From: Candidatus Poribacteria bacterium
Lineage (GTDB): Bacteria; Poribacteria; WGA-4E; WGA-3G
NCBI GenBank assembly: GCA_965215265.1
Contig: OZ244048.1
Coordinates: 384,001-448,000, forward strand
Direction: 5' to 3'
DNA length: 64,000 nt
The notes below the pieces were generated by a model. The model ran no database searches, was not told where the DNA came from, and saw nothing but the letters and a program-made list of their open reading frames with translations. Position 1 is the stretch's first letter. Each line of letters starts with the position of its first letter. Shown one piece after another: positions 27,653 through 52,300 of the stretch. Made by a program: the position numbers and the translations under genes.

Positions 27653-27696
27653 AACGAAGAAATATGCAGACCTTAACGAAGAAATATGCAGACCTT
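27653..27696 (+). repeat. 22-bp perfect tandem duplication spanning the MTase start codon
   Basis: AACGAAGAAATATGCAGACCTT at 27653-27674 and 27675-27696. Confidence 0.9.
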
Positions 27697-31861: not shown

Positions 31862-32566
31862 CTACACAAAAGGCTCAAGTAAAACTCGAAATTTATTGAC
31901 ACAAGAGGCCACGTTTTCTATTGGAAGCTCCTTAAAGTGTTGTGGCTTATGTATTTCTCTGTTCGATTTTCTATTACTATCAAGCAGAGTTATGATTTCC
32001 AGACTTACCGTCGGAGTGTGAGACAGTAACGTATGCGTTGATTCACTACCTAATTGCTCCGGTTTACTAACTTCTCCGTAATCTCCACCTAAACCATTCT
32101 CGAGCTGAAATACACAAAATAGCAGGTCTGGATAAAGTAACTTCGCGATTAACTCAAAATCTTTCAAGGTTCTTTTGAGCATAGCATTTTCTATATATGA
32201 CTTGCACTCTATGCCTAGAATTAACTTGTCATCTATCTTTACTGCTCTATCCAACTCTATTTTATAAACATATCTTTCCTTATTCTGTTCAATATGATGC
32301 CGGATAGATTCAAGAGTTAGATTTTTAACATAATTTTCTTCGATAGTGATAGTTCTTGTCCGTTTTCGTATATCGAAGCGGTCAGTCTCACCCCCTACTT
32401 CATGCCATGCTAAATGGACTATAGCATCCACAATATTCTCTACTAGTGCACCTTTTGCTCCCCGAATCTGTCCTGGAGTCATCTCGTACATTGAATATAT
32501 GCTGCTGTTGTACAACTCAACTATTGATTGATAGTCTGGATAAGTAAGCACATCATAGGTAGCCAT
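31862..32566 (-). CDS. Putative Type II restriction endonuclease
   Basis: Downstream of a DNA MTase; KGALVE...D...GIECKSY PD-(D/E)xK pattern; AT-rich. Confidence 0.62.
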   Translation of the reverse strand: MATYDVLTYPDYQSIVELYNSSIYSMYEMTPGQIRGAKGALVENIVDAIVHLAWHEVGGETDRFDIRKRTRTITIEENYVKNLTLESIRHHIEQNKERYVYKIELDRAVKIDDKLILGIECKSYIENAMLKRTLKDFELIAKLLYPDLLFCVFQLENGLGGDYGEVSKPEQLGSESTHTLLSHTPTVSLEIITLLDSNRKSNREIHKPQHFKELPIENVASCVNKFRVLLEPFV

Positions 32567-32649
32567 TTAGCTGTTCCATATCTTACAAGTGATTTGTAAC
32601 TGCTCCGATATCAAGAATTAAAGCCCTGAAATGCTTAAGTCAAGTTCAC

Positions 32650-33537
32650 TTACACTAAAAGGCGTAACCTATCCTCCGCCGTTTGGCAGTATTCGGGCGA
32701 AATGTCTATACCTAAGAAATGACGTTGGCTTTTAAACGCTGAAACACAAGTTGTTCCAGTCCCCGCGAAAGGATCGAGAATAGTATCTCCTCGGAAACTG
32801 AACAGCTTCAACACCCGATTCGCGAGTTCCTCTGGAAACATCGCAGGATGTCTAAATTTTCGCATATCGCGTTCCGGTGCGATCGTCCATTTCGCCGAGA
32901 CCCACCGTTTGAAAGACTCAGCGTCAATATCCGCATCTTTTGGATGCCCCGACTTTTTCAAAGACCCTTTGCAAAATATCTCTAAAAACTCCCACGTATA
33001 TTTAAGGTAGGGGCTCGAGGGGCTTTTCCAACTCCCCCAAGCAGTATACTTACAATTGTAGTGATTTTTCTCCCATAGAATTTCACCCTTCCAGATCAGC
33101 TTCTTCCGTATAAAGTACTGTGAAATAAGATGATGTGTCGGAATGTAATCCGAAAATAGCGGCTGAACGTTAACAACGATGCGGCCCCCATATTTCAGTA
33201 TTCTGATGCATTCATCAAAGATACCGAACAACACCCTGAAGTAAGCGTCCCATGCAAAGGCATCCTCGGTTCCCTCGTAATCCAGACCAAAGTTGTAGGG
33301 CGGCGATGTGAAAATGAGGTCTATGCAATTGTCAGGCAGCTGCGTGAGAACAGTCTGTGAGTCGCCGCAGATAATTGTATCGGTAAACTCAGCAGGTAGG
33401 ACATTACTCTCCTGACTAAAATCATGCGTATTGGCATAATAGTACTTCCCACGTGCTGCTTCTTTCTGTTTCCGATTCCTAACTTTTCGTTCCATCGTGT
33501 TATCTCTCTTTTTCAAATTGTTCTTTTGCTCAAACAT
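32650..33537 (-). CDS. Site-specific DNA methyltransferase, beta class N4-C/N6-A (SPPY suggests m4C)
   Basis: TSPPY, HPAMFP, LDPFAGTGTT. Confidence 0.92.
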   Translation of the reverse strand: MFEQKNNLKKRDNTMERKVRNRKQKEAARGKYYYANTHDFSQESNVLPAEFTDTIICGDSQTVLTQLPDNCIDLIFTSPPYNFGLDYEGTEDAFAWDAYFRVLFGIFDECIRILKYGGRIVVNVQPLFSDYIPTHHLISQYFIRKKLIWKGEILWEKNHYNCKYTAWGSWKSPSSPYLKYTWEFLEIFCKGSLKKSGHPKDADIDAESFKRWVSAKWTIAPERDMRKFRHPAMFPEELANRVLKLFSFRGDTILDPFAGTGTTCVSAFKSQRHFLGIDISPEYCQTAEDRLRLLV

Positions 33538-33769: not shown

Positions 33770-33799
33770 AAAAATGCCGCCCCTATGAGTAGAGCGGCA
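33770..33799 (-). terminator. Intrinsic terminator closing the Ssp/Pbe-like operon
   Basis: Minus strand TGCCGCTCTA-CTCA-TAGGGGCGGCA-TTTTT. Confidence 0.65.
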
Positions 33800-33966: not shown

Positions 33967-34422
33967 TCACGCCTCCTCTCGTAGTAATTCATCAATTGCG
34001 TCAGAAAGATTCCAGATTGGATCATCCTTTCCATCTTGCAGCATCCTGGCTATATGGGGGACCCCCGCCGCAGCGAGCCCATTCGCGATAGTCATCATGC
34101 GCCGTGGATTTTCCACAACTTGCACGTCATCATCAACTGCTATAGCAATTAACATTACTGTCTGGAACCGCCAACTGTCTCGGTCAAAGATTGAACCTTG
34201 GATGAACGTGAAAGTTTCCTGTTTGGATAGGTTGACTAGTTCGAGTTCCTTTCGCACTGCAAACGATAATCCTGCAAACCATAAATCAACCATTCGCGGG
34301 AAAGGGCTTCGATCTACACTTGCCTGTCTACTTGTTTGGCAGTAACGATCATAAACATCGCGCTGAGTCTTAGGGGCGATTAAATCCATACTAGCAAAGG
34401 GATTATGATATTGCTGTGCCAC
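33967..34422 (-). CDS. Small protein of the defence operon (PbeD/DndE-like by position)
   Basis: Last gene after the SMC-like ATPase; FPRMVDLWFAG...ANGLAAAG helical pattern; assignment positional. Confidence 0.5.
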   Translation of the reverse strand: MAQQYHNPFASMDLIAPKTQRDVYDRYCQTSRQASVDRSPFPRMVDLWFAGLSFAVRKELELVNLSKQETFTFIQGSIFDRDSWRFQTVMLIAIAVDDDVQVVENPRRMMTIANGLAAAGVPHIARMLQDGKDDPIWNLSDAIDELLREEA

Positions 34423-34444
34423 TGTCTACCTCCTAAGATATTGG

Positions 34445-36553
34445 TTACACTTCTGTTTCTACATCCATTCGCCGCTGGCACAAGCGGCATTTCTTACGGT
34501 GATTGCATTCACACCGTAGTGTCTTACGTTGCTCTACCCGTGGATCATTAACTAAAATTCGCGGATAGTGTGCCGAGTTTGTCAACGTTATCACACGCCC
34601 TGCTTCTTCATCCAGAATTTCTTCACAGTCTGCAATCTCGGAGCGCGTGAGAAATAGAATAAGCTGCGAGCTTTCCCGGATGGCAGTCCTAAGTACGGAC
34701 CGCTTCACATAGCCGCTCATCATTCCGAGCGGTGTATCAAGCACATTCGGGGCTTCGACTTCACTAACCTTAGTTAGAGCAAGGATAAAGGCAAAGGTCA
34801 GTGCACGACGAGATGCACCGTTAAGATCTTGGTCAGGGTTTAGCATTTGATTATTTAAACCGTAGACCAGAATATCATAATCCTTGCTGATTTCTGCCCT
34901 TTGAATGATCGCCCCTTGTTTTGGATCAGCACCGATCATTTCAAGAAAAATCTCGTTCATTTTACAGCTGACTTTCATCAATTCTTCATCTGTAATCCGG
35001 TCGTAGGACTTCTTCAGAACACTTTGTACATCGCGCGCCACATCCAGACTCGCAAGTATGTGTTTACCTTTCCTCTGTTTACTAAGAAGGTTATCGCGCC
35101 GCAATACCAAGCTTTTACGCTCTTTTTTTAGTCCTTCAAGTTGTGTTTCAGCTCCCCCTAAACGACGGGAAAGGTGGGTCTTCTGGTCAGTGTAGTCCTG
35201 CTCGGTAGAGCGAAGACCCTGAATATTGATGTCAGGTATAAGGTCCAACTGTGCTTCAAGATCCTTAAGTTTTTCACCTTGTTCATCGCGTTTCCTTTTA
35301 AGTTTATCTCGGCACTCCACGATTTTCTCGTACTCAGCAATCCAATCCTTATTGTTAGCGGTTTCATCCAGTTGCAAGTCACGCGAACCGTAATAGAGGT
35401 CAGTGAGCTTACTTTGAAGAACATCTGCTTGTTGGCTTTCATCAATCAGGCACTGGATGTGGTCTCTTCGCTTCTTGCCATCAACTGTCTGTGAATCTAA
35501 CGACTCACCACAAATGCAAGTAATTCCCTGGAGACGCTCTTCCAAGACAGGAATGGTTGCACTAGGAATCTTGCCCTGAGTGTGCAACTTACTTAGCTTT
35601 TCAAGGCTTTTTTTCAACGTCGGAGCAAGCAGGTCGCGTGAGAAGAACATACCTCTAAAAAGGTGAGAATGTTTTTGACCAGCAGCAGCGAGATTCTTGT
35701 CAAGTTGCTTTAGCTGCACCTTGGTTTCTGCAATATCGATTTTAAGTTTTTCCCGGTCGCCCTTAACTAATGCGATTTCAATTTGTTCCCGGGTTCCCTC
35801 AATTTGTTTATGAATCGCGGCAATCTGCGATTTATAATCGACTATGTTTTTCTCAAGCTTCCTATACGCGGTTTCTATCTCTTCCAATTCTGCAGCAACG
35901 CTTGTGAGTTCCTTATGGATGTCAAGTGATTTTGCTGCTTTGTTGAAGTCAGAAATTGTCGTTTTTATATGTGACCTGGCCTTGTCAATGTAATTCAGTC
36001 CCAAAAGCGAACGGATTGCTTTTTCAACGCGATCTCGCTTGATTTTTTCTGATGCAGTTGCTTCAATGAAACTGAGTGCTCGATCACCGTCAGTAAAGAA
36101 CACCTCCCTTAGTTCAGGCGGAAGTTCTTCTTTAATCCGCACGTTAGGTTTATCCACGTCCTTGCTCCCCGTATCTGTTAATTCAAATAAACGGACCTCT
36201 GGATTATCCATTACACCATCTAATTTTTCATAACCAGCCCGGATAATACGGTATCGTATAGTGTCATCCGGACCGCTCCGACTAAGCCTCTTTGTCTCAA
36301 ATTCAACCTGTACAGATATTGGAATTCGCTGACCATCTGCTGCGTCCCAATCGATCGGATGTAGACGGTAGTCTTTGCCCTTTTCTGGCAATGCATCATT
36401 ACCATAAAGAGCCCATTGAAGTCCATTGAGGATAGTGGTTTTTCCACTTTCGTTCTCTGCCCGAATAACCGTTAGCCTTTTATCCGTTGAAAAGTCTAAC
36501 TTTAAATCACGTAGCAGACGGAAATTTTCAAATTGGGCACGGATAAGTTTCAT
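34445..36553 (-). CDS. pbeC: SMC/Rad50-like ABC ATPase with coiled coil and CxC hook (PbeC/DndD-like)
   Basis: ENFR, AENESGKT, FFTDGD, CICG, LNGASRR signature, VLDTPLG, C-terminal CxC...CxxC. Confidence 0.7.
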   Translation of the reverse strand: MKLIRAQFENFRLLRDLKLDFSTDKRLTVIRAENESGKTTILNGLQWALYGNDALPEKGKDYRLHPIDWDAADGQRIPISVQVEFETKRLSRSGPDDTIRYRIIRAGYEKLDGVMDNPEVRLFELTDTGSKDVDKPNVRIKEELPPELREVFFTDGDRALSFIEATASEKIKRDRVEKAIRSLLGLNYIDKARSHIKTTISDFNKAAKSLDIHKELTSVAAELEEIETAYRKLEKNIVDYKSQIAAIHKQIEGTREQIEIALVKGDREKLKIDIAETKVQLKQLDKNLAAAGQKHSHLFRGMFFSRDLLAPTLKKSLEKLSKLHTQGKIPSATIPVLEERLQGITCICGESLDSQTVDGKKRRDHIQCLIDESQQADVLQSKLTDLYYGSRDLQLDETANNKDWIAEYEKIVECRDKLKRKRDEQGEKLKDLEAQLDLIPDINIQGLRSTEQDYTDQKTHLSRRLGGAETQLEGLKKERKSLVLRRDNLLSKQRKGKHILASLDVARDVQSVLKKSYDRITDEELMKVSCKMNEIFLEMIGADPKQGAIIQRAEISKDYDILVYGLNNQMLNPDQDLNGASRRALTFAFILALTKVSEVEAPNVLDTPLGMMSGYVKRSVLRTAIRESSQLILFLTRSEIADCEEILDEEAGRVITLTNSAHYPRILVNDPRVEQRKTLRCECNHRKKCRLCQRRMDVETEV

Positions 36554-36569
36554 TGGATAGCCCTCCTCC

Positions 36570-36794
36570 CTATTTTAGTTGATTCCGGCTCTCTGCAAGA
36601 GAGTCGCCAGTCTTTTGACAAATTTCGCGTATTTTTTGGTGAATAGGTGTCATCTTCAAAAGATGTTCCTTTTCGTGTTCGAGGATTTTATCTATGGCAC
36701 CAGCAAGTTCCTCCTTGTACCCATCGTACCTTTCCTCAATAGATTGGCATTCATGAAAGATAATGTCAAAGATTTTTTGTCTATTGAACAGCAT
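36570..36794 (-). CDS. Small helical protein (PbeB-like by position)
   Basis: 74 aa with an AGGAG RBS, tightly packed between helicase and ATPase. Confidence 0.6.
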   Translation of the reverse strand: MLFNRQKIFDIIFHECQSIEERYDGYKEELAGAIDKILEHEKEHLLKMTPIHQKIREICQKTGDSLAESRNQLK

Positions 36795-36805
36795 GATTCT
36801 CTCCT

Positions 36806-38941
36806 TTATAGATAAATCGCTTTAACAAGTCGATCAATAATATCCAAAGGCCCATCAGTTCTACCTGCATTCAGAGCGAGTTTAGAAAATTTCATAACTC
36901 GCGAGAGTTCTGATTCAATAAGTTTGCGTGCCTCATCGTCGATATCATCCATGTTCGATGGCAATGCAATAAAATCGTGAATTTCGCTATGTGTCTTGTC
37001 AGTTTCACGACATGTCCGAAGGAGCCTCCCTCGACGCTGTACCCATTGCCGCTCTACTGTAGTACTGGCCAGGATGAACGCCTTTTTAATCTGCGGAATG
37101 TTCACACCTTCATCAAGCACGCGCTTTGCAGTCAGCACATGCAATGTCCCCTCCTGAAAGGATTGGATAATTTTCGCTGTTTTTTCACTGTTCGGTGTTT
37201 CCTTGTATGTGAGTTGGTGAAAAAGCACACCGCGTGCCTTCAATAAAGCATTGACAGCCTCAAGTTGCTGCGGTGCCTTGTCTGATGCGTAAATTAATGT
37301 GTACTGGAGTTGTCGAAACCCCTCACGTGTCAAGACCGCCTCCAACGCCTCGATCTTATTTTCCGCGTTCTCTAAGAGAGCACGCCTATCCCGAAGCAAC
37401 TTCATCAGATACTCATCAGTTTCATTTTCTTCCTTACGCCAAGAATTCGCCTTGATTTTTTCCGTAAGTGCATACCATTGGTCCATTTCGTCCTCTGTGA
37501 GTTCCACAGGATGAACGTAATACTCGTATTCAACGAGGCATCGCCCGATTGCTTCCTCGAGCGTGAATTGGAAAACAACCGGACCGAAAAATGAGAACAG
37601 GACCTCTGTCCCGTGTTCATCATATTGACGGATCGGAGTTGCCGAAAGACCCAGCCTATAATCAAAAAAAGTCGGCAGGTCAGTGATGAATCTCTCACTT
37701 CCCAGATTGTGTACTTCATCCGCAATGAGCAAAGTCTTACAATCCATTTTTTTGATTTCCGTTTTAAACTCGCTATTGCATAGTGTAACATGAGAAACGA
37801 CAACAATTTCAATGCCGCTTCTTCCAATTCGAAGCCGTCGTCTTATCTTATTAAGTTCACGTGCCCGTCCTCTTGCTCCTGTAGACGCTGTCAGATTAAC
37901 AGCCGTGAGTCCAAAGGGCAAAATCTCATCACACCACTGTTGAATGAGCGGAATGTAGGGTGCTGCAACAACGATAAGCAGCGGCTTCTGCACATTGTAA
38001 AGCCTATGTGCACAAATCATAGCAGTAATCGTTTTGCCTGAACCGGTCGCCATTTCTAAGATACCTTGATAATCCGCTTCGCACCACGCATCTACAGCCC
38101 TGCCTTGATGTTCAAAGGGGCCATCCTGAAATCGGAGTTCTGATGGTATTACAAATGAAGTACGAGACGAATCGTAATCGGCAGGAGATTCCTTTATCGA
38201 GCCAGTCGCCTGGTCGTAGAGTGTCCGAAAATCTGTCTCGGTTGGCGGGATGTCTGAACGATAAGTGTGAAGTAGATCGTCGCGAATAGCTTGGGGCATC
38301 TCAACCACGATACAACTCTCAACCTCATTTTCCCAAAGTTGTTTGAACTGGTCACAAAACCTTTCTGTAGTGTAGTGCTGGGTAGGATCTTCCCAGGATT
38401 TAGAAATGGAAATTTGCTCAATATTCTTCTGAATACCGGCATAAGTCATATTGCTAGATCCGTGTGCTGCAATCACGTCATCACCTTTCCGAAAGAGCCA
38501 GACCTTTGGATGGAAGAGTGCATCTTTCATAACGGCTATCTTGATTTGGACGCGTCTCCTATGCAGCAGCCACGACAGACACTTCAGTGTATGTTGCGCA
38601 ATAAGGTCTTCAGTGACAAACATATCTTCTAAAATTGCATTAGCGCTATTTTCCGAAGAGGTTAGCCCTTCTTCTATTGCCTCCCTATCTTCAGAGCGGA
38701 GCAGAGGACTGATAATTAAGCGAAAACTCTCCTCTGAGGAGTTGATAAAGGTTGCCAAGCCCGGGGCTAGCGACACGAAGATGTCGCTAGAAAAGAATCC
38801 CATCATGCCATCAACTTGAGTCGCTGACTGAAAGCAAGGGATCAGGACCTCTTCAGACACCGGATCGTCAGGTAGTATGTAGAGAGGTCTAATATTAGGC
38901 ACAGCCTGAAGCGTCATCTCATTAAGCTCCAACATCTTCAT
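36806..38941 (-). CDS. pbeA: PLD-nuclease domain fused to an SF2 DEAD/DEAH helicase (PbeA-like)
   Basis: HPK...GSSN (PLD); MATGSGKT, DEVH, SAT, LDEGVNIP, QRRGRLLR. Confidence 0.72.
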   Translation of the reverse strand: MKMLELNEMTLQAVPNIRPLYILPDDPVSEEVLIPCFQSATQVDGMMGFFSSDIFVSLAPGLATFINSSEESFRLIISPLLRSEDREAIEEGLTSSENSANAILEDMFVTEDLIAQHTLKCLSWLLHRRRVQIKIAVMKDALFHPKVWLFRKGDDVIAAHGSSNMTYAGIQKNIEQISISKSWEDPTQHYTTERFCDQFKQLWENEVESCIVVEMPQAIRDDLLHTYRSDIPPTETDFRTLYDQATGSIKESPADYDSSRTSFVIPSELRFQDGPFEHQGRAVDAWCEADYQGILEMATGSGKTITAMICAHRLYNVQKPLLIVVAAPYIPLIQQWCDEILPFGLTAVNLTASTGARGRARELNKIRRRLRIGRSGIEIVVVSHVTLCNSEFKTEIKKMDCKTLLIADEVHNLGSERFITDLPTFFDYRLGLSATPIRQYDEHGTEVLFSFFGPVVFQFTLEEAIGRCLVEYEYYVHPVELTEDEMDQWYALTEKIKANSWRKEENETDEYLMKLLRDRRALLENAENKIEALEAVLTREGFRQLQYTLIYASDKAPQQLEAVNALLKARGVLFHQLTYKETPNSEKTAKIIQSFQEGTLHVLTAKRVLDEGVNIPQIKKAFILASTTVERQWVQRRGRLLRTCRETDKTHSEIHDFIALPSNMDDIDDEARKLIESELSRVMKFSKLALNAGRTDGPLDIIDRLVKAIYL

Positions 38942-38970
38942 TTTTTAGACATAATCAAATTTAATAAAAA

Positions 38971-39789
38971 CTACTTATAACAAATCAGACACGGTTCCTC
39001 ATCGTCTTCATCGTCGTGCACATCCGTAAGGATATCTATCAGCCGCCGATTCGGACGAGCCGCCCGCTTCGCCGCCTTCGACTCTTCAGCATGTGCCTTA
39101 ATCTGCTCAATGCGTTCCGGGTCCGAAAGCTCGTCTAAACTCTCGCTCTGACACCATGTGAACCGTTCACCGGTATCAGGGTCAAATTTCTCGTATGCCT
39201 TGGCGAGTTCAAAAAGGTCGGGATGTTTCTCCAGCAACCCTACCCACTCGGATTTACGCTGGAAGAAGCAGAAATAGCACCCGGAACGCGTCCGCCAATC
39301 GTAATAGTCCGGCATCCCGAGCCCACTCTCCTCCAGAATGCGGTAGACATCCTGTTTCGTGATACCATCTTCCTTAAAAGGATATTTCGGCTCAATGTTT
39401 CGCAACTCCGCGTTTTTCAGCGGCTTATAACCGACGCGATCCTCATCTGCACGAATCGCGATGTAGTTGTACGCCTTGTCGTCACCGACATATCTCTCAA
39501 ACGGTTTAATCTTGAGATTGACGGTACACCAACGCACCTGTGGCGATGGCAACAAGCCCCCTAAAACCGTCAACCAGTGATCGAAATCCCGCTCCGTATT
39601 CAGACGGGCGATCGGTTTGCCGAGGAACGCCTCCAGCCGATCCAAAAACGCATACGTCTCCGGCAATTCTTTCCCAGTATCTGAGAACACATATTCCATC
39701 TCCGGCACCCGGTCACGCATATAAATCGCGAGTGCAGAACTATCTTTCCCACCGGAGAGCCCAAGAATGTGTCGTCTCTGCTGTTCCAT
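38971..39789 (-). CDS. sspD: PAPS reductase-family protein (SspD/DndC-like)
   Basis: SGGKDS PP-loop, RWCT, RSGCYFCFFQ, C-terminal CLIC; ATG at 39789 preceded by GGAGG. Confidence 0.75.
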   Translation of the reverse strand: MEQQRRHILGLSGGKDSSALAIYMRDRVPEMEYVFSDTGKELPETYAFLDRLEAFLGKPIARLNTERDFDHWLTVLGGLLPSPQVRWCTVNLKIKPFERYVGDDKAYNYIAIRADEDRVGYKPLKNAELRNIEPKYPFKEDGITKQDVYRILEESGLGMPDYYDWRTRSGCYFCFFQRKSEWVGLLEKHPDLFELAKAYEKFDPDTGERFTWCQSESLDELSDPERIEQIKAHAEESKAAKRAARPNRRLIDILTDVHDDEDDEEPCLICYK

Positions 39790-39799
39790 GTTTTCCTCC

Positions 39800-42700
39800 C
39801 TATTCTTGAAGTTGTTGCATCCATTTCTGTGCAATTCGTGCGAAAATAGCGACGCGAAGCTCAAGGGTATCAGTGCCCATCCCAAACTGCTTAAAGACCT
39901 CATCAATAGCCTTTTCTATTTCGGAAGCCTGCTTATCAGCCGCTGATGGTAAAGTGACGACCCGCTCCTGTTCGGCTTGGTGAGGCCGTGTAATGCCGAC
40001 CCGAACAGGTTCACTAGATGACGGCTGACGGCACGCTTGTTCTTCATAAGAAACGGCTTCAAAATGATGGAATTGTCGCGCGAGCGTCGAAAGATTCATC
40101 TCAAATAGAGCGTTATCTTCGTCATTCCAAGATCTCGGCGGTTTGTTAGCTACATAGAGCGCCACTGCCTCAAGCCAGTCAGTGCGATTCCGAAGCTTGC
40201 CATCGCAGACTCGACGGAGAAATCCGTTGAGCCTCCCCCCAACGGTAATTTCCAACAGCGGCTCTGCTCTGCGAACCAGTACACGCTGAAGCTCTTTCTC
40301 GTCTTCCAAAGCGAACGTCGTCTTAAGTCGTTGTTCAATCGAATTCAACAGACTCTCGTAGACCTGCCGCAATTCAGATAAAACCTCCTGTAGTCTGCTG
40401 CAGAAGTCCGAAACTACCTGCGAGTCCACGATTTCCGGGCTGAAAACCGGAAATCCGAGGGCCTTCGGCAGCTCCCCAAAAAGCAGCTCATCCGGTTCAC
40501 GCGCATTCGTAACCGATGTACGCAGCCTCTTAGCTTCATCGCTCAACTCCTCCGTTTTCAAAGTGTAGTCTGGAAGTTGTGCAATAAATTGCATAAGCGG
40601 TGCAACCACCGTCAATAAATCAGGTTCTCCAGGTTCCGACGATTGACGGAGTACCTTCAGAAATTGCTCGAACAACTCGCCCCGGATAGCTGTCATCCGG
40701 AAGCGCTTGATCTCAAATCGTTGCGGCATTTTAAGCAGCCGCTCAAAAAGCGGCACTGACCATTCCGGGGCAAAGCCCCCATTTTCGTAGAGCGCGATTT
40801 CCGACTTGTAATGCAGCAGAGCAGCACACAACAGAATCGGCAGCAGACCATTTCGAACACCGTAAGGCTCGGCCTCTAAGCATTTATAGAGAGCTACTAC
40901 CGGTTGCCGCTCGCCTTCACACTCCTCAAGAAACGCATCTATTTCTCCCCACACGGGCATCAGACTTTCTTCCGTTGGCGGACAAAACCCCCACATGTCC
41001 GAAACTTTGCGATGCATGCCCGTACTCTCTAACACAGAACGGTAGATGCTCATTTCAGCCGGGTAACCGTTGATGCCGAGGTTTTCCATGTCACTCCTCT
41101 CAAGCATCGCCTCAATCAATTTTCTTCGGGCAGTCGCCGCTGTCGCAGAAATACTACGTCTATTGATGAGCTCATTACGAATAATAGGTGTCCCAGGGTA
41201 AACCTGCTTACAGATTTCTGACAAATATCTGTTCCGCGCACGTTGGGAGTTGATACTTTCTACAGGTTTCCCTTTGTGGTACCAGAGACAAGTTTTATCT
41301 CTATCCTTGTCGCCCTTAAAAATTTCGGTTAGTTGACCGGACACTGCGCGTTCTGCTTCCATCTGCCGCAGGAGGAGCTCCCGTCTTGCAACTGCATCGC
41401 CCTCCAATTCCGGGGTGTTTTCCGCAACCCAATGTAGACAGGCAAGTTCAAAGACAACCTCTTGCAGCGACTCGATCGAACGTGGAATCGCAACCAACAC
41501 CGCCGCGTGCGCGACACTGTCCATGCCGCACGCCTTCTCAATGAACTGATCGACCTGTTCCTGCGTCGCAGGTAGCGTGTAAAGGATCAGACCGTCCGCA
41601 TCCTCGAACGGTTCACTCAGATCTGCCTCGAAGTTCTCAAGATTGGTGTACCGAACAGTGAAATGACGGAGGGTCCCTGTCTCAAACAGATGCTGCCGTG
41701 CAACGAGCGGACGCGGTTGTGTATAGCGCGAGAGGTCTGCAGCAAGCACTAACTCCGAACCAATATGGGCCGCGGCTTCGCGGAGCCGTACCTCAATATC
41801 AATATCACTCCCTTCCCAAAGGGCGTAGGTGTCATTGTAACGACGGTATATCACAATGGATCGCCTTTTCAGATCTGCAAGCGCCTCCTCAAATCCTCCT
41901 CCGTTAGCGTCTAACGCATAACGCAGCATTTGTGCTGAGGCTTTCAGCTCAGGAATCCCTGTGTTAACAACATTGAGTAACCCAATAGTTTTAATCAGAC
42001 GAAGCGCTAACGGTGAAGGATCCGATAAGCAATCTAAGGCAGATTCAATTTCTACCCATTTTTTCCCGTTATGAGAAGCATAAAGCCGATGCCCTTGTGT
42101 AGTATGAAGGTAGTCATACAGTTCAGCGAGCGAAAACAGAGGCAGAACCTCTCCATCGTAAGATTCTGATGCCAAAAAGTCTTGTAGCCCATGCGGTTCG
42201 CTTGAACTCAGGAAAGCAAAGAGCGAACGTTCATTCTGTGAGAACCGCCGGAAAAGCGGCCCGATCATGAGGGCCACCGTCGGATGCAGCGGCAGACAAC
42301 TCTTCAATAACAAAATAAATTCGTCTTCATTCAATTGGCGCGGTTTTAGTCCTAAAGCAATTGCATTGTTAAGATTAGGCGGCACGACAACCTCTGGATG
42401 CCGCACCAATGCCGCACTAATTAACCGAAGCACCTGCTCAGTCGGCTCCGTAAACACCACATCCTCGAACCGGCCCTGAACCTTCGCCCACTCTTCTCGT
42501 TGTGACCTACTCGCACGTTCCACGTAAAATTCAAAAGCTTGATGCAGGATCGTCATCAGGAAGAACGGTGCCGGCGTACTGCGATCCGCCAATTCGGCGA
42601 GGCTCTGCAGAACAAATATATCTGCTTGTGCCGGACGATCCGCAGCATATTCGAGAAACTTTCCCAGCTCGTCAACCACCACCAGCAGCCCGGAACCTCC

Positions 42701-43279
42701 AGCATCACAAATTTGACGTGTCGCCGATTCAAATAGCGCAGTTATCTCAGAGGCAGACGGCGAACCCCCATTTGCTACCATTTCTTTCAGGTTGTCGAGA
42801 ACCGCAGCAGCACCCCAATCGCCGTTTGAACGACTGAGCCCATGCTGCAGACCCCGCAGCAGACTACGCGTAAGCGGCGCACGTTCCCCCGAAATCAACA
42901 CAGGACAGAAACCAGATGACGACACCGCCCCCTTACCGTTTGCACCGACAGATACGAATCGCGCATGCAGCTCAGCATCACCCGCCTTCAGGATTTCTAA
43001 AGCCTGGCGCGCCGCGGAAGTGTCACGGGCACCGAGTAACTGTGCCGCAAAGAGTGCAAATGCCGACTTCCCCGAACCATACGGGCCCGTCAGAGACCAC
43101 GCCTTTGAACCACGTTCGTTTTCAAACGTAGAAACCACACGCCCCAACATATCCCGCGCACTCACAGTCAAAACGTACCCATCCAGAACGCTCTCCGTGT
43201 AGAAATCGCGCTCCAGATGCACCGAACGCCTAAAACGCCCCCTAATCTGAAAAATATCTGACAACAAGGTGTTACTCAT
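39800..43279 (-). CDS. sspC: Large P-loop ATPase (SspC-like)
   Basis: FRRSVHLERD, GPYGSGKS, VVVDELGKFLE, QNERSLFAFL; 4-bp overlap with the DUF4007 gene. Confidence 0.7.
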   Translation of the reverse strand: MSNTLLSDIFQIRGRFRRSVHLERDFYTESVLDGYVLTVSARDMLGRVVSTFENERGSKAWSLTGPYGSGKSAFALFAAQLLGARDTSAARQALEILKAGDAELHARFVSVGANGKGAVSSSGFCPVLISGERAPLTRSLLRGLQHGLSRSNGDWGAAAVLDNLKEMVANGGSPSASEITALFESATRQICDAGGSGLLVVVDELGKFLEYAADRPAQADIFVLQSLAELADRSTPAPFFLMTILHQAFEFYVERASRSQREEWAKVQGRFEDVVFTEPTEQVLRLISAALVRHPEVVVPPNLNNAIALGLKPRQLNEDEFILLLKSCLPLHPTVALMIGPLFRRFSQNERSLFAFLSSSEPHGLQDFLASESYDGEVLPLFSLAELYDYLHTTQGHRLYASHNGKKWVEIESALDCLSDPSPLALRLIKTIGLLNVVNTGIPELKASAQMLRYALDANGGGFEEALADLKRRSIVIYRRYNDTYALWEGSDIDIEVRLREAAAHIGSELVLAADLSRYTQPRPLVARQHLFETGTLRHFTVRYTNLENFEADLSEPFEDADGLILYTLPATQEQVDQFIEKACGMDSVAHAAVLVAIPRSIESLQEVVFELACLHWVAENTPELEGDAVARRELLLRQMEAERAVSGQLTEIFKGDKDRDKTCLWYHKGKPVESINSQRARNRYLSEICKQVYPGTPIIRNELINRRSISATAATARRKLIEAMLERSDMENLGINGYPAEMSIYRSVLESTGMHRKVSDMWGFCPPTEESLMPVWGEIDAFLEECEGERQPVVALYKCLEAEPYGVRNGLLPILLCAALLHYKSEIALYENGGFAPEWSVPLFERLLKMPQRFEIKRFRMTAIRGELFEQFLKVLRQSSEPGEPDLLTVVAPLMQFIAQLPDYTLKTEELSDEAKRLRTSVTNAREPDELLFGELPKALGFPVFSPEIVDSQVVSDFCSRLQEVLSELRQVYESLLNSIEQRLKTTFALEDEKELQRVLVRRAEPLLEITVGGRLNGFLRRVCDGKLRNRTDWLEAVALYVANKPPRSWNDEDNALFEMNLSTLARQFHHFEAVSYEEQACRQPSSSEPVRVGITRPHQAEQERVVTLPSAADKQASEIEKAIDEVFKQFGMGTDTLELRVAIFARIAQKWMQQLQE

Positions 43280-44268
43280 TCTTCCCCTTCTTTGTCATAA
43301 TACTGCTTTAAAAGTCGCATCGACTCTGAATCACACCGACTATCGCGATGGAAAAGTCGCATCGACTCGGAACCACACCGACTATCGCGATGGAGCTGCT
43401 TTAAACCTGCAGTATCATCATATCGCAGTACACCCGCGGTAAGTTCTTCAAGCCTATCGAGATACAGAGTCATCGTGTCTTCATCTATTCTGAAAATTCG
43501 TCCCGGACTTAAGGGTTCATACATCAGCTCTTGGAAGCGCAATGTGTTCGCTGCAGAAAAACGTTTATCCCAAAACGCAATCAGCGTCGCCGTAAAGAGC
43601 TCGACCGGTAAAGTCTCTTTTCTCCCACGCTGGAACTCATAGCCCGCACCCTCCGGCAACTCACCGATTAAGTTGAGCTCAACAAGCGGACAAGCAAAAG
43701 TCTCCTCAACTAAGGCAGCGTTAAAACTATCAGGTGAAGCGCAATACGTCCGAATAAAACAAGTCACATCGCGCCGAAATGTATTGTCAGAAACAGGCCG
43801 CTTCGATACCCGCTGCTGCGATGCCCACTTCGACAATTCCGTTATAAAGGTGTCAAATGTGAATCGATTCTCCTTAAAAATGTTAAATGCCCAATACCAC
43901 GTAGTAGCCTGGTTGATATGAGTTGCAATCTGCCAATGAATGAACCACAGAGTAGCAGGGTCATCGAGGTACGGATCAAATCCGTCTTTCCCAAAAAAAG
44001 CCTCGCCGAGCTCTGTTGGCACAAATACCCCGGGTTGACGTGATACTGTCTCAATAAGTCCAGATACTCTGCACCAGTACCGAATAGAATCCACCATGTT
44101 TTTTCCGACACCTAAAGTGACGGAAGCCTCCTGCGATGAAAAAACATCCGGATCCTCGATTACCGCATCGACACCTTTCTTCAACCACATGTATCGCATC
44201 GGAAACGTCTGATGGCCTGAAAAGGACAGATTTCTTACTTGTGAAGGGTTGAAGCGTAGGTTACTCAA
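43276..44268 (-). CDS. sspB: DUF4007 protein (SspB-like)
   Basis: FSGHQTF..R..WLKKG, LGVGKNMVDSIRYW, DPYLDDPATLWFIHW, DTAGLKQ. Confidence 0.8.
   Translation of the reverse strand: MSNLRFNPSQVRNLSFSGHQTFPMRYMWLKKGVDAVIEDPDVFSSQEASVTLGVGKNMVDSIRYWCRVSGLIETVSRQPGVFVPTELGEAFFGKDGFDPYLDDPATLWFIHWQIATHINQATTWYWAFNIFKENRFTFDTFITELSKWASQQRVSKRPVSDNTFRRDVTCFIRTYCASPDSFNAALVEETFACPLVELNLIGELPEGAGYEFQRGRKETLPVELFTATLIAFWDKRFSAANTLRFQELMYEPLSPGRIFRIDEDTMTLYLDRLEELTAGVLRYDDTAGLKQLHRDSRCGSESMRLFHRDSRCDSESMRLLKQYYDKEGEE
43310..43393. repeat. 42-bp in-frame tandem duplication in the 3' end of the DUF4007 gene
   Basis: Copies at 43310-43351 and 43352-43393 with 2 mismatches; encodes HRDSRC(G/D)SESMRL twice. 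Confidence 0.9.
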
Positions 44269-44468
44269 ATTTTGCCCCCAAAAATGTACAAATCCTCAGC
44301 ACATGCAGCCCTGGGGGCAAAAAATTGAGAATAAGCGATAGAGAGACGGTACAACAAAAACAGCCCGCAGCCGGTGCCATCAACCAATATGACACACGAG
44401 CGCACGGACAAAAAATCGGCAAATGCCAATAACGTTTTACTTAATAAAATACTTAACGAATGTGAATT

Positions 44469-44478
44469 GGGGGGGGGG
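44469..44478. repeat. G10 homopolymer (C10 on the minus strand) in the leader of the defence operon
   Basis: Ten consecutive G. Confidence 0.9.
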
Positions 44479-44694
44479 TCGTGGCCTGTTAAACCTTGTG
44501 TACGAGAGGGATCTCGTGGAATTAACGACCGACAGCAATTGCAACCGGACGCTGGTACTGTTTTAAATCTAGGACTAATATGTTTATTCTTCATCTACTT
44601 TACCGGTTAGATGTGAGGGAGTATAACTTAAACCAGAATGGAAAATAATTGAGATAATACACATTTTTCTGTTCTTCGGGTCATATTTACCTAT

Positions 44695-44723
44695 ATTATA
44701 CCTTAAACTGCAAATCTGTTCAA
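44695..44723 (-). promoter_or_regulatory. Candidate promoter for the Ssp/Pbe-like operon
   Basis: Minus strand TTGAAC-17 bp-TATAAT. Confidence 0.5.
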
Positions 44724-44785: not shown

Positions 44786-45652
44786 CTAGCCTTTAAACAC
44801 CTCTCTTAGGTGCCAATCTATAAATTCTTCGTTCGGGTAATCCATCTGGCTATGAGGAAAACTAATTTCTTTTCCGTGGAATCTCATTAGCCATTCTTCA
44901 AAACCGGCTGACCCGTCTGCATCCTCAGATACCACTATTGTCAACTCCTCGGACAATGCAAAGGCCCCCCGGTCGAACAACTTATGATGTAGCGAGCAGA
45001 GAGCCATGCCATTCTCTGCTATATCCGGTCCATCCGCCATGCGCCATTTGATATGAGCCGCCTCTAAAGCGACAGGACGAGCTCGTAACGTTACATTAAA
45101 TCCACAAATCGCACACTCGTGGTTATAAGCATCGAGGATACGGTGCCGGAATTTAGGATCACGGGGCTGCCAGAACGATCCGAAAGATAGTTCAATGCCG
45201 ACAGCTTGTAAAATATCTTCATGGTATGAGATTGGAAAATGAGAAGCTAGCAACCGCCCAGTTATTTCAAAAACTAAACCCAAATCGCTTTTAAGTTTTT
45301 CGGCAATCGCTGCCGGAAAGCTACCGACACCGTACTCCCTCAAATCGGTGACGTACGCATCTCCACTAGCAGTCTGCTGAATTCTATGTGCATCGGATAC
45401 TTGCCAGATGTCGTCGTTTTGCAACCGCCAAAATGGCTGCTCAGGGTGATACCTTTGGCACCACGGTCCAAACTCTTTTAGTAAGTCCTTGAGTTCCTTT
45501 TCAGCTTCTGCAAATGGGATGTACTCAGTTTCGCTGTTCAGCAATTTGCCTATCGCATAAAGTAGCAGCAACGGCTTATGAGGCGCTCTTTCGCCGCCGC
45601 TTTTCCATACATTCAAGTCCTGAAATTTCTGAATAATTGATTCTCTGTCCAT
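44786..45652 (-). CDS. SBD-HNH endonuclease (phosphorothioated-DNA-binding restriction endonuclease family)
   Basis: RAPHKPLLLL and PEQPFWRLQND (sulfur-binding-domain-like); CAICG, LEAAHIK, NGMALCSLHHKLFDRG (HNH). Confidence 0.8.
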   Translation of the reverse strand: MDRESIIQKFQDLNVWKSGGERAPHKPLLLLYAIGKLLNSETEYIPFAEAEKELKDLLKEFGPWCQRYHPEQPFWRLQNDDIWQVSDAHRIQQTASGDAYVTDLREYGVGSFPAAIAEKLKSDLGLVFEITGRLLASHFPISYHEDILQAVGIELSFGSFWQPRDPKFRHRILDAYNHECAICGFNVTLRARPVALEAAHIKWRMADGPDIAENGMALCSLHHKLFDRGAFALSEELTIVVSEDADGSAGFEEWLMRFHGKEISFPHSQMDYPNEEFIDWHLREVFKG

Positions 45653-49308: not shown

Positions 49309-52300
49309 ATGAACAAAGAACACATCAGAGAGGCTCTCGCTGCAATATGCACTGGCCCCTTTTTACAAACCGCGAAAAACCTGCTCGCCACGCTCGGCTA
49401 CCGCAGCGATTTGACAGAAGCATTCTCTGGAACAGCCGGCGACTTTATAGAGACTTTCCCCGCATTCAACCCGAACACCCAAACGGAACAAGCCCTCCGA
49501 AACCACGCAGCCTCGATACACTTCATCTTCCAACTCACAGACGCAGAAATAGATGGCGAAACGCAACAGCGGTTAGAACTCTTTGAAGGAAACGATGCGG
49601 AAAGTTTCTTTTTCTTCGCGGTTGAACTAAAAGAGAAAACCTACTCCCGCGGTGCGTACGCAGAATTGACGCGAGAAATCAATAAGCGTCTGATTGTTCC
49701 GACGGTGGTGTTATTTCGTGTGTCAACCCGGCTAACCCTCGGTTTTGTGGGACGCCGTCCACACGAGCACCACCCAGAACGTGATGTTCTCCAACAAGTG
49801 ACACTCATCAAGGATATTCGTCTTGAGGCACCGCACCGTGCGCATTTAGATATCCTCTCTGAACTTTCACGAACAGAATGCCTGAACTGGATGGACGCAA
49901 ATAACAGACAGAAAAACTTAGCCGGACTGCTATCCGCCTGGCTAGCGAAACTCAACACCGAAGCGCTCAATAAGCAGTTCTACCGAAGGTTGTTCAGCTG
50001 GTTTGAGTGGGCAGTGAGGGAAGCGAAGTTCCCGACAGCCGAGCTGAATCCGTTGGGTTCCGAAGCACACATCATCCGGCTCATCACGCGGCTGCTCTTT
50101 ATATGGTTCTTGAAAGAAAAAGGGCTTGTCCCCGAGTGGCTTTTTCAAGATTCCGGGCAGAAAGAGCAGGCGGGCACGCAAAACAACGAGCTGTCTGAAG
50201 AATCTGAACAGAATAGGCAGGTAAGCCTGCAAAACAACCAACAGTCTGAATACCCCCCCCCTTACAGACGTTAAGTCTTCTGCCGAACTCCACGACAGAA
50301 AGCAGCCTGCACGCACACCTCAAAAACTTTGAGCCCGACACATCCGACTACTACCAAGCCATCCTCCAAAACCTATTCTTTGCTACTCTCAACACACCTA
50401 TAAATCAACGCACATTTAGCACACACGATAACCGGAGCCACCGCGACTCAAGCAAATATCGCTATGCTGACCTGCTCCAACAACCCGACACCTTCCTTCA
50501 ACACCTAAAGCACGTCCCATTTGTCAACGGCGGACTGTTTGACTGCCTCGATACCTTTGAGGCAACCGGCGACGGCGGTGTCCGAATAGACTGTTTCTCT
50601 GATAACAAAACAGTTCGGCAAAAATTACACGTCCCCGCAAAACTCTTCTTTGACAAAACACACGGCCTCTTTCCTCTCTTCGCTCACTATAAGTTTACCG
50701 TCGAGGAAAACACACCCATTGAACAAGAAGTCGCGCTCGATCCAGAACTGCTCGGACAGATATTCGAAAACCTGCTCGGCACCTATAACCCCGAAACACA
50801 ATCCACCGCACGCAAAGCCACAGGCTCTTACTACACACCCCGCCAGATTGTCGACTATATGGTAGACGAGGCACTCATCGCATACCTCCTCCAAAACGTC
50901 AAACCCTACGACGGAAACACACAATCCCTTGAAGAACGCCTCCGCGAAGACCTCCTCGCTTACGAATCCCAAGGCAACATTGATGAAGACGCACATCACC
51001 TCATTCATCCAGAGGAAATCCAACCCCTCATTCAGGCAATCGACGCACTCAAAATCATAGATCCAGCCGTCGGCTCCGGGGCTTTCGCTATGGGCATCCT
51101 CAATAAACTCGTGCTCATCCTCCGAAAACTCGACCCGCAGAATCAAAACTGGAAGCAGCGACAACTTCAACAAGCTGAGAACATACCAGATACCCATAGC
51201 CGAGAAAGCGCGAAGCAGGCAATTGAGGCAGTTTTCTCCAAGGCGAATCACTACAACGACTACGGACGTAAACTCTACCTCATCCAAAACGGCCTCTACG
51301 GCATAGATATACAACCCATCGCCGTCACCATAGCAAAACTCCGCTTTTTCATCTCCCTCATCATAGAGCAGATACCCAACCAGAACCCTGACGACAACTA
51401 CGGCATCAGACCCCTCCCCAACTTGGAGACGAAGTTCGTTGCCGCAAACACCCTCATCGGCTTGAAGGGGGCAAAAGAAACGGATTTTCAGCGCTTGCTG
51501 GAAACAGACACCATCCAACAACTCCGCAACGACATTGAAGTCATCCGCGCCAAACACTTCTCCGGCAGCACCCGTCCGCAAAAACTTGAGGCGATGCGAA
51601 AAGAGGAAAAGTGCCGTGAAAAATTGGCACGAGCGCTAAGAACACAGTCGGAACAGTGGACGGTGCAGGAGCAAAGCCGGATATCCCAACAGATTGCGCA
51701 GCTGCCAAAAAAGGAGGCGCGCAACCAACTCCAAGAAAAACTCGAGAAAGCGTATGCAATTCGTCAGCAAAAGCTAACAGCCAGCGTAGAAGAGGCACAG
51801 AAAATCGCAGACTGGAATCCATACAACCAGAACGCCGTCGCCGATTTCTTTGAACCCGCATGGATGTTCGGCATCCACCACGGCTTTCACATCGTCATCG
51901 GCAATCCACCCTACATCCGACACCACAAAATTCACCATCTCAAACCTACCTTGAAAACACAATTTGGTGATTTCTTTACGGGCATGGCAGACATCAGCGT
52001 CTACTTCTACAAACGCGGAGCCGAACTACTACGAGAAGGTGGTTTACTCTCCTACATCTGCACAAACAAGTTTATGCGCAGCGGCTACGGAAAAAAACTA
52101 CGCCAATTCCTAACCGCTGAGATGGCACTAAAAACAATTTTGGATTTCGGCAGCCTTTCCGTCTTTGACGCAGCAGTAAATGCATCCATTCTCCTCGTTC
52201 AAAAGTCGCCACCTACTCCAAACCACACCCTCCATGCGACAACCCTAAGGCATGTTTCAAAGGAATTTAACGTCCGGAAAGCATTTCAAACGCAGGCATT

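Follow-up and report, generated by a model that had tools for sequence, protein, structure and literature searches.

The stretch of DNA analysed here, hereafter the window, is 64,000 nucleotides long (contig OZ244048.1 of a Candidatus Poribacteria bacterium), and the element in question is a run of seven genes in which a SspBCD module for DNA phosphorothioation (PT) is followed directly by a PbeABCD effector module (Table 1). The first-pass annotation of the window had described seven co-oriented genes with gaps of 29 bp or less, or overlaps, and all seven open reading frames (ORFs) do lie on the minus strand between 33967 and 44268, with coordinates that agree with this description; sspB and sspC overlap by 4 bp, and the remaining junctions are, in order, gaps of 10, 29, 11, 16 and 22 bp, the one of 29 bp separating sspD from pbeA. 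The start of sspD was taken as the ATG at 39789; the ORF list runs on to a TTG at 39906. What is observed at this locus and its relatives is the identity of the genes, their intact catalytic motifs, the layout of the operon and the long-term co-inheritance of this clade of Pbe with Ssp. We consider it probable that the operon is a two-module PT defence system, with SspBCD as the writer and PbeABCD as the effector.

In Ssp-type PT the mark is on a single strand and in a short motif, for example CpsCA. The first three genes had been taken for the SspBCD module on account of a DUF4007 protein, a large ATPase and a protein of the PAPS-reductase family, and PADLOC indeed names them SspB, SspC and SspD, with the Pfam families DUF4007 and PAPS_reduct in agreement. 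SspB, matched by the PADLOC model at 1.8e-97 (324 bits) and by DUF4007 at 1.7e-86 (290 bits against a cut-off of 27), would be the DNA-recognition and nicking subunit of the predicted modifier; past the DUF4007 match, its C-terminus (residues ~294-321) carries a 14-residue unit in tandem (HRDSRC-SESMRL, twice). SspC, matched with E=0 and 1099 bits over profile positions 1-1053 of 1054, is a large P-loop ATPase with a Walker A motif (GPYGSGKS) at 65 and a Walker B motif (VVVDE) at 199. SspD matches its model over positions 1-277 of 277 (1.7e-116, 386.8 bits) as well as PAPS_reduct (2.1e-8), and with its PP-loop motif SGGKDS at 12, CYFC at 171 and CLIC at 267 it is predicted to be a sulfur-transfer enzyme of the PAPS-reductase family.

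Bacteriophage exclusion (BREX) type 4, the PT-based form of BREX, comprises BrxP, BrxC, PglZ and BrxL, and a variant of it was the alternative against which the Ssp/Pbe assignment had been set beforehand. SspC does match one BrxC model at 622 bits, there are weak BrxP matches to SspB (4.3e-4) and SspD (2.9e-9), and BrxP and BrxC are homologous to SspD plus SspB and to SspC (PMC12914056, PMC12839542; papers with a PMC number are cited in this text from excerpts). However, the Ssp models score far above these (SspC, 1099 against 622 bits for BrxC; SspD, 386.8 against 33.7 bits for BrxP), SspB and SspD are separate, unfused genes, and the locus holds no PglZ. The two PglZ matches over the cut-off in the genome lie far from the window, and the one retrieved has a response-regulator receiver domain; BrxL was not searched by name. 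The BREX alternative thus fails on the scores, and we regard it as highly improbable. No Aminotran_5 gene that could encode the cysteine desulfurase SspA is present in the window; the nearest lies ~194 kb past its end, and the cysteine desulfurase homologues of the genome are none of them close to the operon. SspA is not obligatory in the described Ssp systems, where an IscS-type desulfurase can act in trans (PMC8092258).

The other four genes, a helicase, a small protein, an ATPase resembling structural maintenance of chromosomes (SMC) proteins and a second small protein, had been compared with PbeABCD, and the comparison holds for PbeA and PbeC by PADLOC, for PbeD by fold and profile, and for the 74-aa protein by position and size only; the PADLOC models give exactly the earlier Ssp/Pbe assignment. 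For the 711-aa PbeA (PADLOC 3.5e-199), the Pfam domains PLDc_2, ResIII and Helicase_C bear out the call of a phospholipase D (PLD) domain with a superfamily 2 (SF2) helicase, and the protein is predicted to be an HKD (PLD) nuclease fused to an SF2 helicase. Its match to NCBIfam TIGR04095, 'DNA phosphorothioation system restriction enzyme', scores 382 bits, short of the cut-off of 600. The HKD residues H144, K146, S162 and N164 are invariant in 46/46 homologues, as are helicase motifs I, II and VI (GxGKT at 300-304, DExH at 408-411 and QRRGR at 635-639). PbeC (PADLOC PbeC 1.8e-48 and DndD 5.3e-39; Pfam AAA_23; TIGR03185, the DndD family of NCBIfam, at 122 bits and below cut-off) is by these matches a CxC-hook coiled-coil ABC ATPase and a sister of DndD, and the hook that had been noticed in the SMC-like ATPase (C346, C348) is invariant in 27/27 aligned homologues together with the region of the P-loop lysine. 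A C-terminal cluster of PbeC, C681xC683...C689xxC692 (CxC-x5-CxxC, residues 681-692), is likewise invariant in 27/27 homologues; it is a putative second zinc site besides the coiled-coil CxC hook, and the literature excerpts do not speak of it.

The 151-aa protein closing the operon gave nothing useful in Pfam for 18 family members, a best E of 0.65 (to an ion channel) in a profile search of the PDB, and no Foldseek match at E <= 0.001. Its AlphaFold2 model (mean pLDDT 85) has two DndE structures as its top matches in VIA-align against 48,161 chains, namely 7x4e_A (Z 8.4, root-mean-square deviation 3.6, 111 residues aligned, target length 114) and 5wtu_A (Z 7.3), followed by an F-plasmid relaxosome chain at Z 6.6 and then a drop to Z 3.7. 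The profile of the family (18 homologues) aligns in hhalign with that of eight PbeD proteins, drawn from Dnd-coupled, methylase-coupled and Rhizobium loci, at a probability of 86.5% (E 4.6e-6, 140 columns). Because its top structural matches are DndE and its profile aligns with PbeD, the protein is PbeD, the DndE cognate of Rakesh et al. 2024 (PMC10853773), and a predicted DNA-binding protein of the DndE fold. Neither the 151-aa nor the 74-aa protein had a PADLOC match even at E <= 10, or any family hit. PADLOC likewise gave no PbeB match for the small protein of the Rhizobium Ssp-type, Dnd-coupled and haloarchaeal loci, and no PbeD match for the Sphingomonadaceae, Rhizobium, Dnd-coupled and haloarchaeal PbeD, so the missing match for the small proteins of the window says little. 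A homologue of the 74-aa protein stands between pbeA and pbeC in 28/29 related loci (the survey is described below), at 30-46% identity and with G25, Y26, E41 and H44 invariant.

Twenty ORFs of the window were run through PADLOC, and the whole genome was searched for DndC, DndD and DUF262. DndC had no match in the genome and DndD none above the cut-off, and the operon thus differs from the type system of Pbe, which has dndCDE(A) beside it. The first-pass annotation had stated that sspE, sspFGH and dnd genes are absent from the window; as far as it was checked, the statement agrees with the results for DndC, DndD and a clear SspE, and PADLOC found neither SspE nor SspFGH beside sspD among the proteins of the locus, although SspFGH was not searched by name. 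The genome has one DUF262+DUF1524 gene, 1.1 Mb away, and it was rejected as SspE, for HEC-06/Orf5 fits it better and its SspE match is partial (67 bits). A candidate second PT system near 1.04 Mb, with weak PAPS_reduct, PglZ and Aminotran_5 matches, turned out to be a GMP synthase, a response-regulator-PglZ protein and an unrelated aminotransferase. Since there is no DndC, no DndD over the cut-off and another explanation for the matches near 1.04 Mb, the Ssp module is the only recognisable PT writer in the genome; Pbe is the only recognisable multi-gene effector beside it.

The adjacency of Ssp and Pbe alone proves little because the window is a defence island, with a type II restriction-modification (RM) pair directly downstream, a second methyltransferase (MTase) and a type IIG enzyme. 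It can be hypothesized that the two are independent systems lying side by side in this island, SspBCD being solitary, epigenetic or served by a neighbouring endonuclease that joins a sulfur-binding domain (SBD) to an HNH nuclease, and Pbe working alone or with the N4/N6 MTase. Related loci bear directly on this alternative. A survey of close relatives with one genome per species and the PbeA of the window as query gave 29 loci at 58-77% identity, under record names of Poribacteria, Latescibacterota, Dehalococcoidia/Chloroflexota, Caldilineaceae, Acidobacteriota, Rhodospirillaceae and Oleispirillum, and these were probed with the proteins of the window by tblastn over 10 kb around PbeA. SspB, SspC and SspD all lie within 10 kb of PbeA in 21/29 loci, from at least six phyla, and at least one Ssp gene is found in 25/29, whereas homologues of the MTase and restriction endonuclease (REase) next to the operon are found in 0/29. 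Linkage persists through three arrangements: in the first the ssp genes precede pbe on its strand, in the second they follow it on that strand (L027, L033), and in the third they follow it on the opposite strand (L021, L022, L034). It also persists through exchange of the Ssp lineage: in three Latescibacterota loci PbeA is 72-75% identical and SspC only 24-25%, and therefore one Pbe lineage has been re-paired with a different Ssp lineage. Four of the loci have SspD only; in L006 and L010 this is genuine, in L015 the locus is cut by the contig end and in L021 by the locus end. In L006, L010, L021 and L023 the flanking ORFs had matches only of the MzaB-like, PrimPol-like and PDC-M33A kinds, and none to Ssp, Dnd or Pbe.

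The same linkage is seen within the phylum, for which 176 species genomes were surveyed (PbeA at E <= 1e-30, SspD at E <= 1e-20). SspD is present in 123/176 genomes, mostly at 74-86% identity (88/111, 10/11 and 24/29 in the families f1, f2 and f3), and PT writing thus seems near-universal in these lineages, as far as the presence of the gene can tell. PbeA-like genes are present in 57/176. A full-length PbeA of 66-77% identity occurs in 24 genomes, and in 23 of them the coordinate tables place SspD within 3 kb on the same contig; the sole exception, G115, is fragmented. The phylum has a second PbeA lineage, of 33-37% identity, in ~30 genomes, and this one lies far from SspD. Of six more loci retrieved for a distant PbeA (33-36%), five (L062, L063, L064, L066 and L067), of this second lineage at 33-35%, adjoin DndC-DndD-DndE. 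In the sixth, L065, the PbeA (36%) forms a lineage of its own in the tree and is convergent with SspD and SspC. Dnd- and Ssp-coupled Pbe coexist in one phylum and sometimes in one genome (L062-L067, G094); G094 has several PbeA matches, and many genomes hold a dndCDE-pbe locus plus a separate ssp locus.

Beyond the phylum, a plasmid search with PbeA returned 24 records, of which 13 were inspected. The plasmid CP099618, from a cultured Sphingomonadaceae, has a PbeA 49% identical to that of the window and a complete sspABCD-pbeABCD in one overlapping run, in the order cysteine desulfurase, DUF4007 protein, SspC of 1100 aa, PAPS reductase, PbeA, 74-aa protein, AAA ATPase and 148-aa protein, with sspD and pbeA overlapping by 4 bp. 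On NZ_CP140639, a Rhizobium indigoferae plasmid (PbeA 31%), a run of small protein-PbeC-PbeD-PbeA is convergent with sspD-C-B-A. The other 11 plasmid loci are Dnd-coupled (3), have a methylase nearby (5) or nothing annotated nearby (2), or are unannotated (1). A metagenome scan with an alignment of 15 PbeA sequences gave 568 relatives, of which the best 80, by a ranking that favours sequences like that of the window, were kept; loci were labelled Ssp-coupled with at least two of SspB/SspC/SspD and Dnd-coupled with at least two of DndC/DndD/DndE. Over all 80 loci, many of them on short contigs, 11 were Ssp-coupled and 6 Dnd-coupled, 4 had one gene only and 59 none. The corresponding numbers were 6, 3, 0 and 7 for the 16 loci flanked by at least 5 kb on either side, and 10, 4, 1 and 18 for the 33 with summed flanks of at least 10 kb, where half of the Ssp-coupled loci (5/10) have a PbeA less than 37% identical to that of the window. 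The survey for the same gene order that the first-pass annotation had proposed shows, then, that the Ssp-Pbe pairing recurs widely in genomes, plasmids and metagenomes; it is common and not unique to the window.

On the PbeA tree, the kind of partner depends strongly on the clade. With IQ-TREE and 46 PbeA sequences (L030, L031 and L033 being too short for inclusion, and loci with SspD only labelled Ssp), a clade of 29 with SH-aLRT 100 consists of 27 Ssp-coupled members and 2 with nothing seen, and all 8 Dnd-coupled and 5 methylase-coupled rows fall outside it. FastTree on 70 rows places the window in a clade of 34 (support 100), 32 of them Ssp-coupled and 2 with nothing seen, with three more Ssp-coupled groups outside it, the Rhizobium type included. 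Partner labels change 11 times on this tree against 28.5 times in shuffles (0/200 as low); such trees show the fidelity of clades to their partners and not a rate, for related rows carry the same labels and the sampling began from the clade of the window. The Dnd-coupled Pbe of the same phylum falls outside the Ssp clade of the window.

Several findings weigh against a two-module system, some of them also in favour of independent neighbours. Four of the 29 loci have no Ssp gene; in L014 the contig starts at pbeA, and in L023, L030 and L031 the absence is genuine. The PbeA homologues of L030 and L031, both Chloroflexota, are 501-548 aa long and match only residues 228-711, i.e. they are helicases without the PLD domain. 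L006 and L010 keep SspD alone beside Pbe. At 7 of the 13 plasmid loci Pbe is beside a methylase or has no visible modifier, and in the phylum Ssp thrives without Pbe (13/14 Pbe-less ssp loci sampled). A linked cysteine desulfurase is found in 5/29 related loci, all of other phyla and none with a Poribacteria name. The family of the 74-aa protein aligns with other PbeB at a probability of only 10% in hhalign; homology to PbeB is unproven, and for this reason the protein is named by its position and size. The PbeA of the window was itself the seed of the surveys, so its clade is over-sampled and kin are not independent. PT at this locus, and at any locus of Ssp-coupled Pbe, is predicted from sequence. 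Rakesh et al. 2024 (PMC10853773) question the PT dependence of CxC systems and argue that such CxC/Pbe modules can act PT-independently. Nevertheless, the operonic junctions, with 29 bp between sspD and pbeA here and an overlap in CP099618, the lack of any MTase or REase homologue in the related loci as against the frequent Ssp genes, the three arrangements, the swaps of Ssp lineage and the fidelity seen on the trees all stand against two independent systems, which we consider unlikely.

Both modules are known from other settings. The order of the three modifier genes, with an effector cassette directly after them, is that of SspABCD-SspE and SspABCD-SspFGH, for which Xiong 2020 (Nat Microbiol) is reportedly a source; the effector in the window is, however, PbeABCD and neither SspE (DUF262+DUF1524) nor SspFGH, the latter not having been searched by name. 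On the effector side, DndCDEA-PbeABCD of Haloterrigena jeotgali A29 (PMC6459918) has the same four-gene effector directly beside a PT-writing module, likewise made up of a PLD+ResIII+helicase protein, a protein of 66-74 aa, an AAA_23 coiled-coil ATPase and a protein of 151-152 aa. It differs from the operon described here in its writer, which here is SspBCD (DUF4007, ORC/Cdc6-type ATPase and short PAPS reductase) and not DndCDE, with no linked desulfurase, and the PbeA of the window is only 28-32% identical to that of haloarchaeal plasmids and belongs to a separate, Ssp-associated clade. The first-pass annotation had presented PbeABCD as the haloarchaeal partner of DndCDEA, and this proved too narrow on two counts. 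Xiong 2019 (PMC6459918) had already counted 235 bacterial pbeAC, and 320/553 were 'solitary'. Moreover, the system anchored by a CxC ABC ATPase and DndE that Rakesh, Aravind and Krishnan described in 2024 (PMC10853773) is Pbe under another name, having the HKD-SF2 nuclease-helicase, the small protein, the CxC zinc-hook ABC ATPase and the cognate DndE, and it is tied there to DndD-centred PT modules and also to cytosine methylases.

The judgement that the Ssp-Pbe pairing is uncharacterised was upheld, in that we found no publication naming it, supplementary tables, figures and Xiong 2020, any of which could contain such neighbourhoods, being outside the search. The excerpts of PMC12914056, PMC12839542, PMC12707154 and PMC8092258 hold no mention of the coupling. 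In the excerpt of PMC12914056, 2132 SspD neighbourhoods are analysed and the text mentions only a link to BREX; that of Rakesh et al. treats Ssp as a separate system without a DndE cognate and leaves a coupling to SspBCD unmentioned (PMC10853773); and the 'PT_other' catch-all of PADLOC would label such loci without naming them (PMC9252829). According to Wang 2021 (PMC8092258), sspBCD stands without SspE or SspFGH in 2211/2678 cases, and further partners were proposed; Pbe is one of those further partners. Ssp-Pbe is a recombination of two known modules and brings no new principle; its recurrence in many bacteria suggests a genuine kind of anti-phage system that has yet to be named.

We infer the PT chemistry of the system, the strand and motif concerned, the dependence of Pbe on PT and the role of each Pbe protein from these homologies, and a working model can be put forth as follows. 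SspD would be charged with sulfur by a housekeeping cysteine desulfurase encoded elsewhere, SspB and SspC would choose and open the site, SspB by binding and nicking and SspC as the ATPase, and the SspD-type transferase would then write PT on one strand, at a short motif, in the host chromosome. PbeC with the DndE-like PbeD may load on DNA and scan it, and Pbe would read single-strand PT marks; PbeA, as an HKD nuclease and SF2 translocase, would translocate along invading DNA and cut or block it, and the 74-aa protein may regulate the Pbe complex. If the haloarchaeal DndCDEA-PbeABCD is a guide, the activity of Pbe should need host PT, block the replication of phage DNA and be harmless without the modifier. 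In that system, the only one in which Pbe has been studied by experiment, protection by Pbe needs PT and not contact with the Dnd proteins, pbeABCD without PT or dnd is non-toxic, all four genes are needed, and viral DNA replication is blocked with no visible degradation (PMC6459918). Rakesh et al. 2024 (PMC10853773) took the conservation of HKD as an argument that cleavage must occur, and the invariant HKD residues of all 46 PbeA agree with it.

A more complex possibility is that the seven gene products form one integrated complex, in which SspD, PbeC and PbeD would be a trio like DndC-DndD-DndE and serve as a second machine for sulfur insertion or PT checking. The sister relation of PbeC to DndD and the DndE fold of PbeD would fit such a trio, SspD abuts pbeA more often than the other Ssp genes do, the two loci with SspD only keep it by PbeA although SspB and SspC are missing from the surrounding 10 kb, and a CxC-DndE pair has been proposed to trigger associated modification enzymes (Rakesh et al. 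2024, PMC10853773). However, both of those genomes hold a complete ssp(A)BCD elsewhere, so that SspB and SspC may act in trans, and the haloarchaeal Pbe genes are dispensable for PT while Pbe needs PT and not contact with Dnd (PMC6459918). We find the integrated complex quite unlikely. In the two loci concerned (L006 in G030, L010 in G087), sspD stands directly before pbeA, with the full ssp(A)BCD at another place in each genome. A bolder reading, which we hold to be doubtful, is that the whole Pbe clade is specialised for the single-strand PT of Ssp, with SspD a working part of a Pbe machine in which the PAPS reductase, the CxC ATPase and the DndE-like protein would be a Dnd-like trio that checks or repairs PT on the DNA it scans. 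SspD in this role would explain why sspD stays by pbeA where sspB and sspC have moved away, and a clade so specialised would account for a sizeable share of the 'solitary' PbeABCD and 'orphan' SspBCD.

The earlier gene list had the seven genes right and overlooked an eighth gene just upstream of sspB, which encodes a putative SBD-HNH endonuclease. It matches NCBIfam NF045808, 'phosphorothioated DNA-binding restriction endonuclease', at 4.6e-99 (331 bits against a cut-off of 180), and it has N-terminal matches to the sulfur-binding domains of 5zmm and 7cc9, structures of the ScoMcrA and SprMcrA type. With those enzymes (SBD-(SRA)-HNH) it shares the sulfur-binding domain and the HNH nuclease; unlike them, it has no detected SRA domain, and it is encoded inside an Ssp-type PT-writing locus, the described neighbourhood link being to Dnd loci. 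Nucleases with a winged helix-turn-helix (SBD), SAD and HNH are reported in the Dnd loci of 698 taxa, and no statement of a counterpart in Ssp loci was found in the excerpt (PMC10853773). A homologue is present in 10/29 Pbe loci and in 10 of 14 loci of the phylum that have ssp but no Pbe, where it begins ~10-60 bp past sspD in 8; these 14 were chosen on large contigs among the top SspD matches and are not a random sample. It is likely an accessory partner of the ssp locus, and its role may be that of an effector or reader cognate to Ssp and not that of a type IV enzyme against foreign PT. At L050, L053, L054 and L058, sspD is paired with the SBD-HNH gene and tblastn found no SspB or SspC within 17 kb; the two genes may form a minimal unit of their own, or the genome may hold sspB and sspC at another site.

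Other cassettes after sspD (L048, L049, L052, L055) encode a GmrSD_N+HNH protein of 424 aa that is NsnA-like, a DndB-like protein of 628 aa, HATPase_c_3/MzaB-like proteins, and a CD-NTase-like cyclase behind the HNH gene. Because differing cassettes sit at this point in different species, the position after sspD looks like an effector exchange site, of which PbeABCD would be one occupant.

The flanks of the operon show consensus matches. The promoter-like site upstream of sspB agrees with the consensus at 10/12 positions, in a scan that gave 13 such sites against 15.7 expected from shuffles. The terminator that the first-pass annotation had placed at the end of the operon is present as a hairpin 3' of pbeD; it is weak evidence on its own because the scan gave 16 such sites against 11.5 in shuffles, again by consensus match only. 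A 109-aa ORF (44265-44594, minus strand) overlaps the start of sspB by 4 bp, has a low-complexity look and had no family match, in PADLOC even at E <= 10; it is probably not a gene, and the stretch more likely holds the promoter of the operon. The N-terminal part of the type IIG enzyme may be a separate or split ORF (49309-50274 and 50859-53216, plus strand).

Table 1. Features of the operon and its surroundings (positions in the window)
Feature	Position	Strand	Remarks
sspB	43276-44268	-	330 aa, TTG start
sspC	39800-43279	-	1159 aa
sspD	38971-39789	-	272 aa, counted from ATG
pbeA	36806-38941	-	711 aa
Small protein at the pbeB position	36570-36794	-	74 aa
pbeC	34445-36553	-	702 aa
pbeD	33967-34422	-	151 aa, GTG start
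SBD-HNH phosphorothioate-binding endonuclease, putative	44786-45652	-	upstream of sspB; NCBIfam NF045808
Promoter-like site	44695-44723	-	TTGAAC-17-TATAAT; upstream of sspB
Terminator-like hairpin	33775-33799	-	3' of pbeD; 9-bp stem, 6 G-C pairs, T run
Type II RM pair (N4/N6 MTase and REase)	31862-33537	-	PADLOC; directly downstream of operon
Second MTase	27686-28669	+	PADLOC
Type IIG enzyme	50859-53216	+	PADLOC

Cultured carriers of the pairing, namely the hosts of the plasmids CP099618 and NZ_CP140639 and Oleispirillum naphthae, allow a direct test of the discrimination between single- and double-strand PT, and the phylum, with SspD in most of its genomes and varied cassettes after sspD, is a natural system for the study of effector exchange. 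Two puzzles in PT biology are that most sspBCD have no known restriction partner and most pbeAC have no dnd, and Ssp-Pbe accounts for part of both. The Pbe/CxC effector is then a portable module, whose clades are each faithful to one mark, be it the PT of Dnd, the PT of Ssp or methylation.

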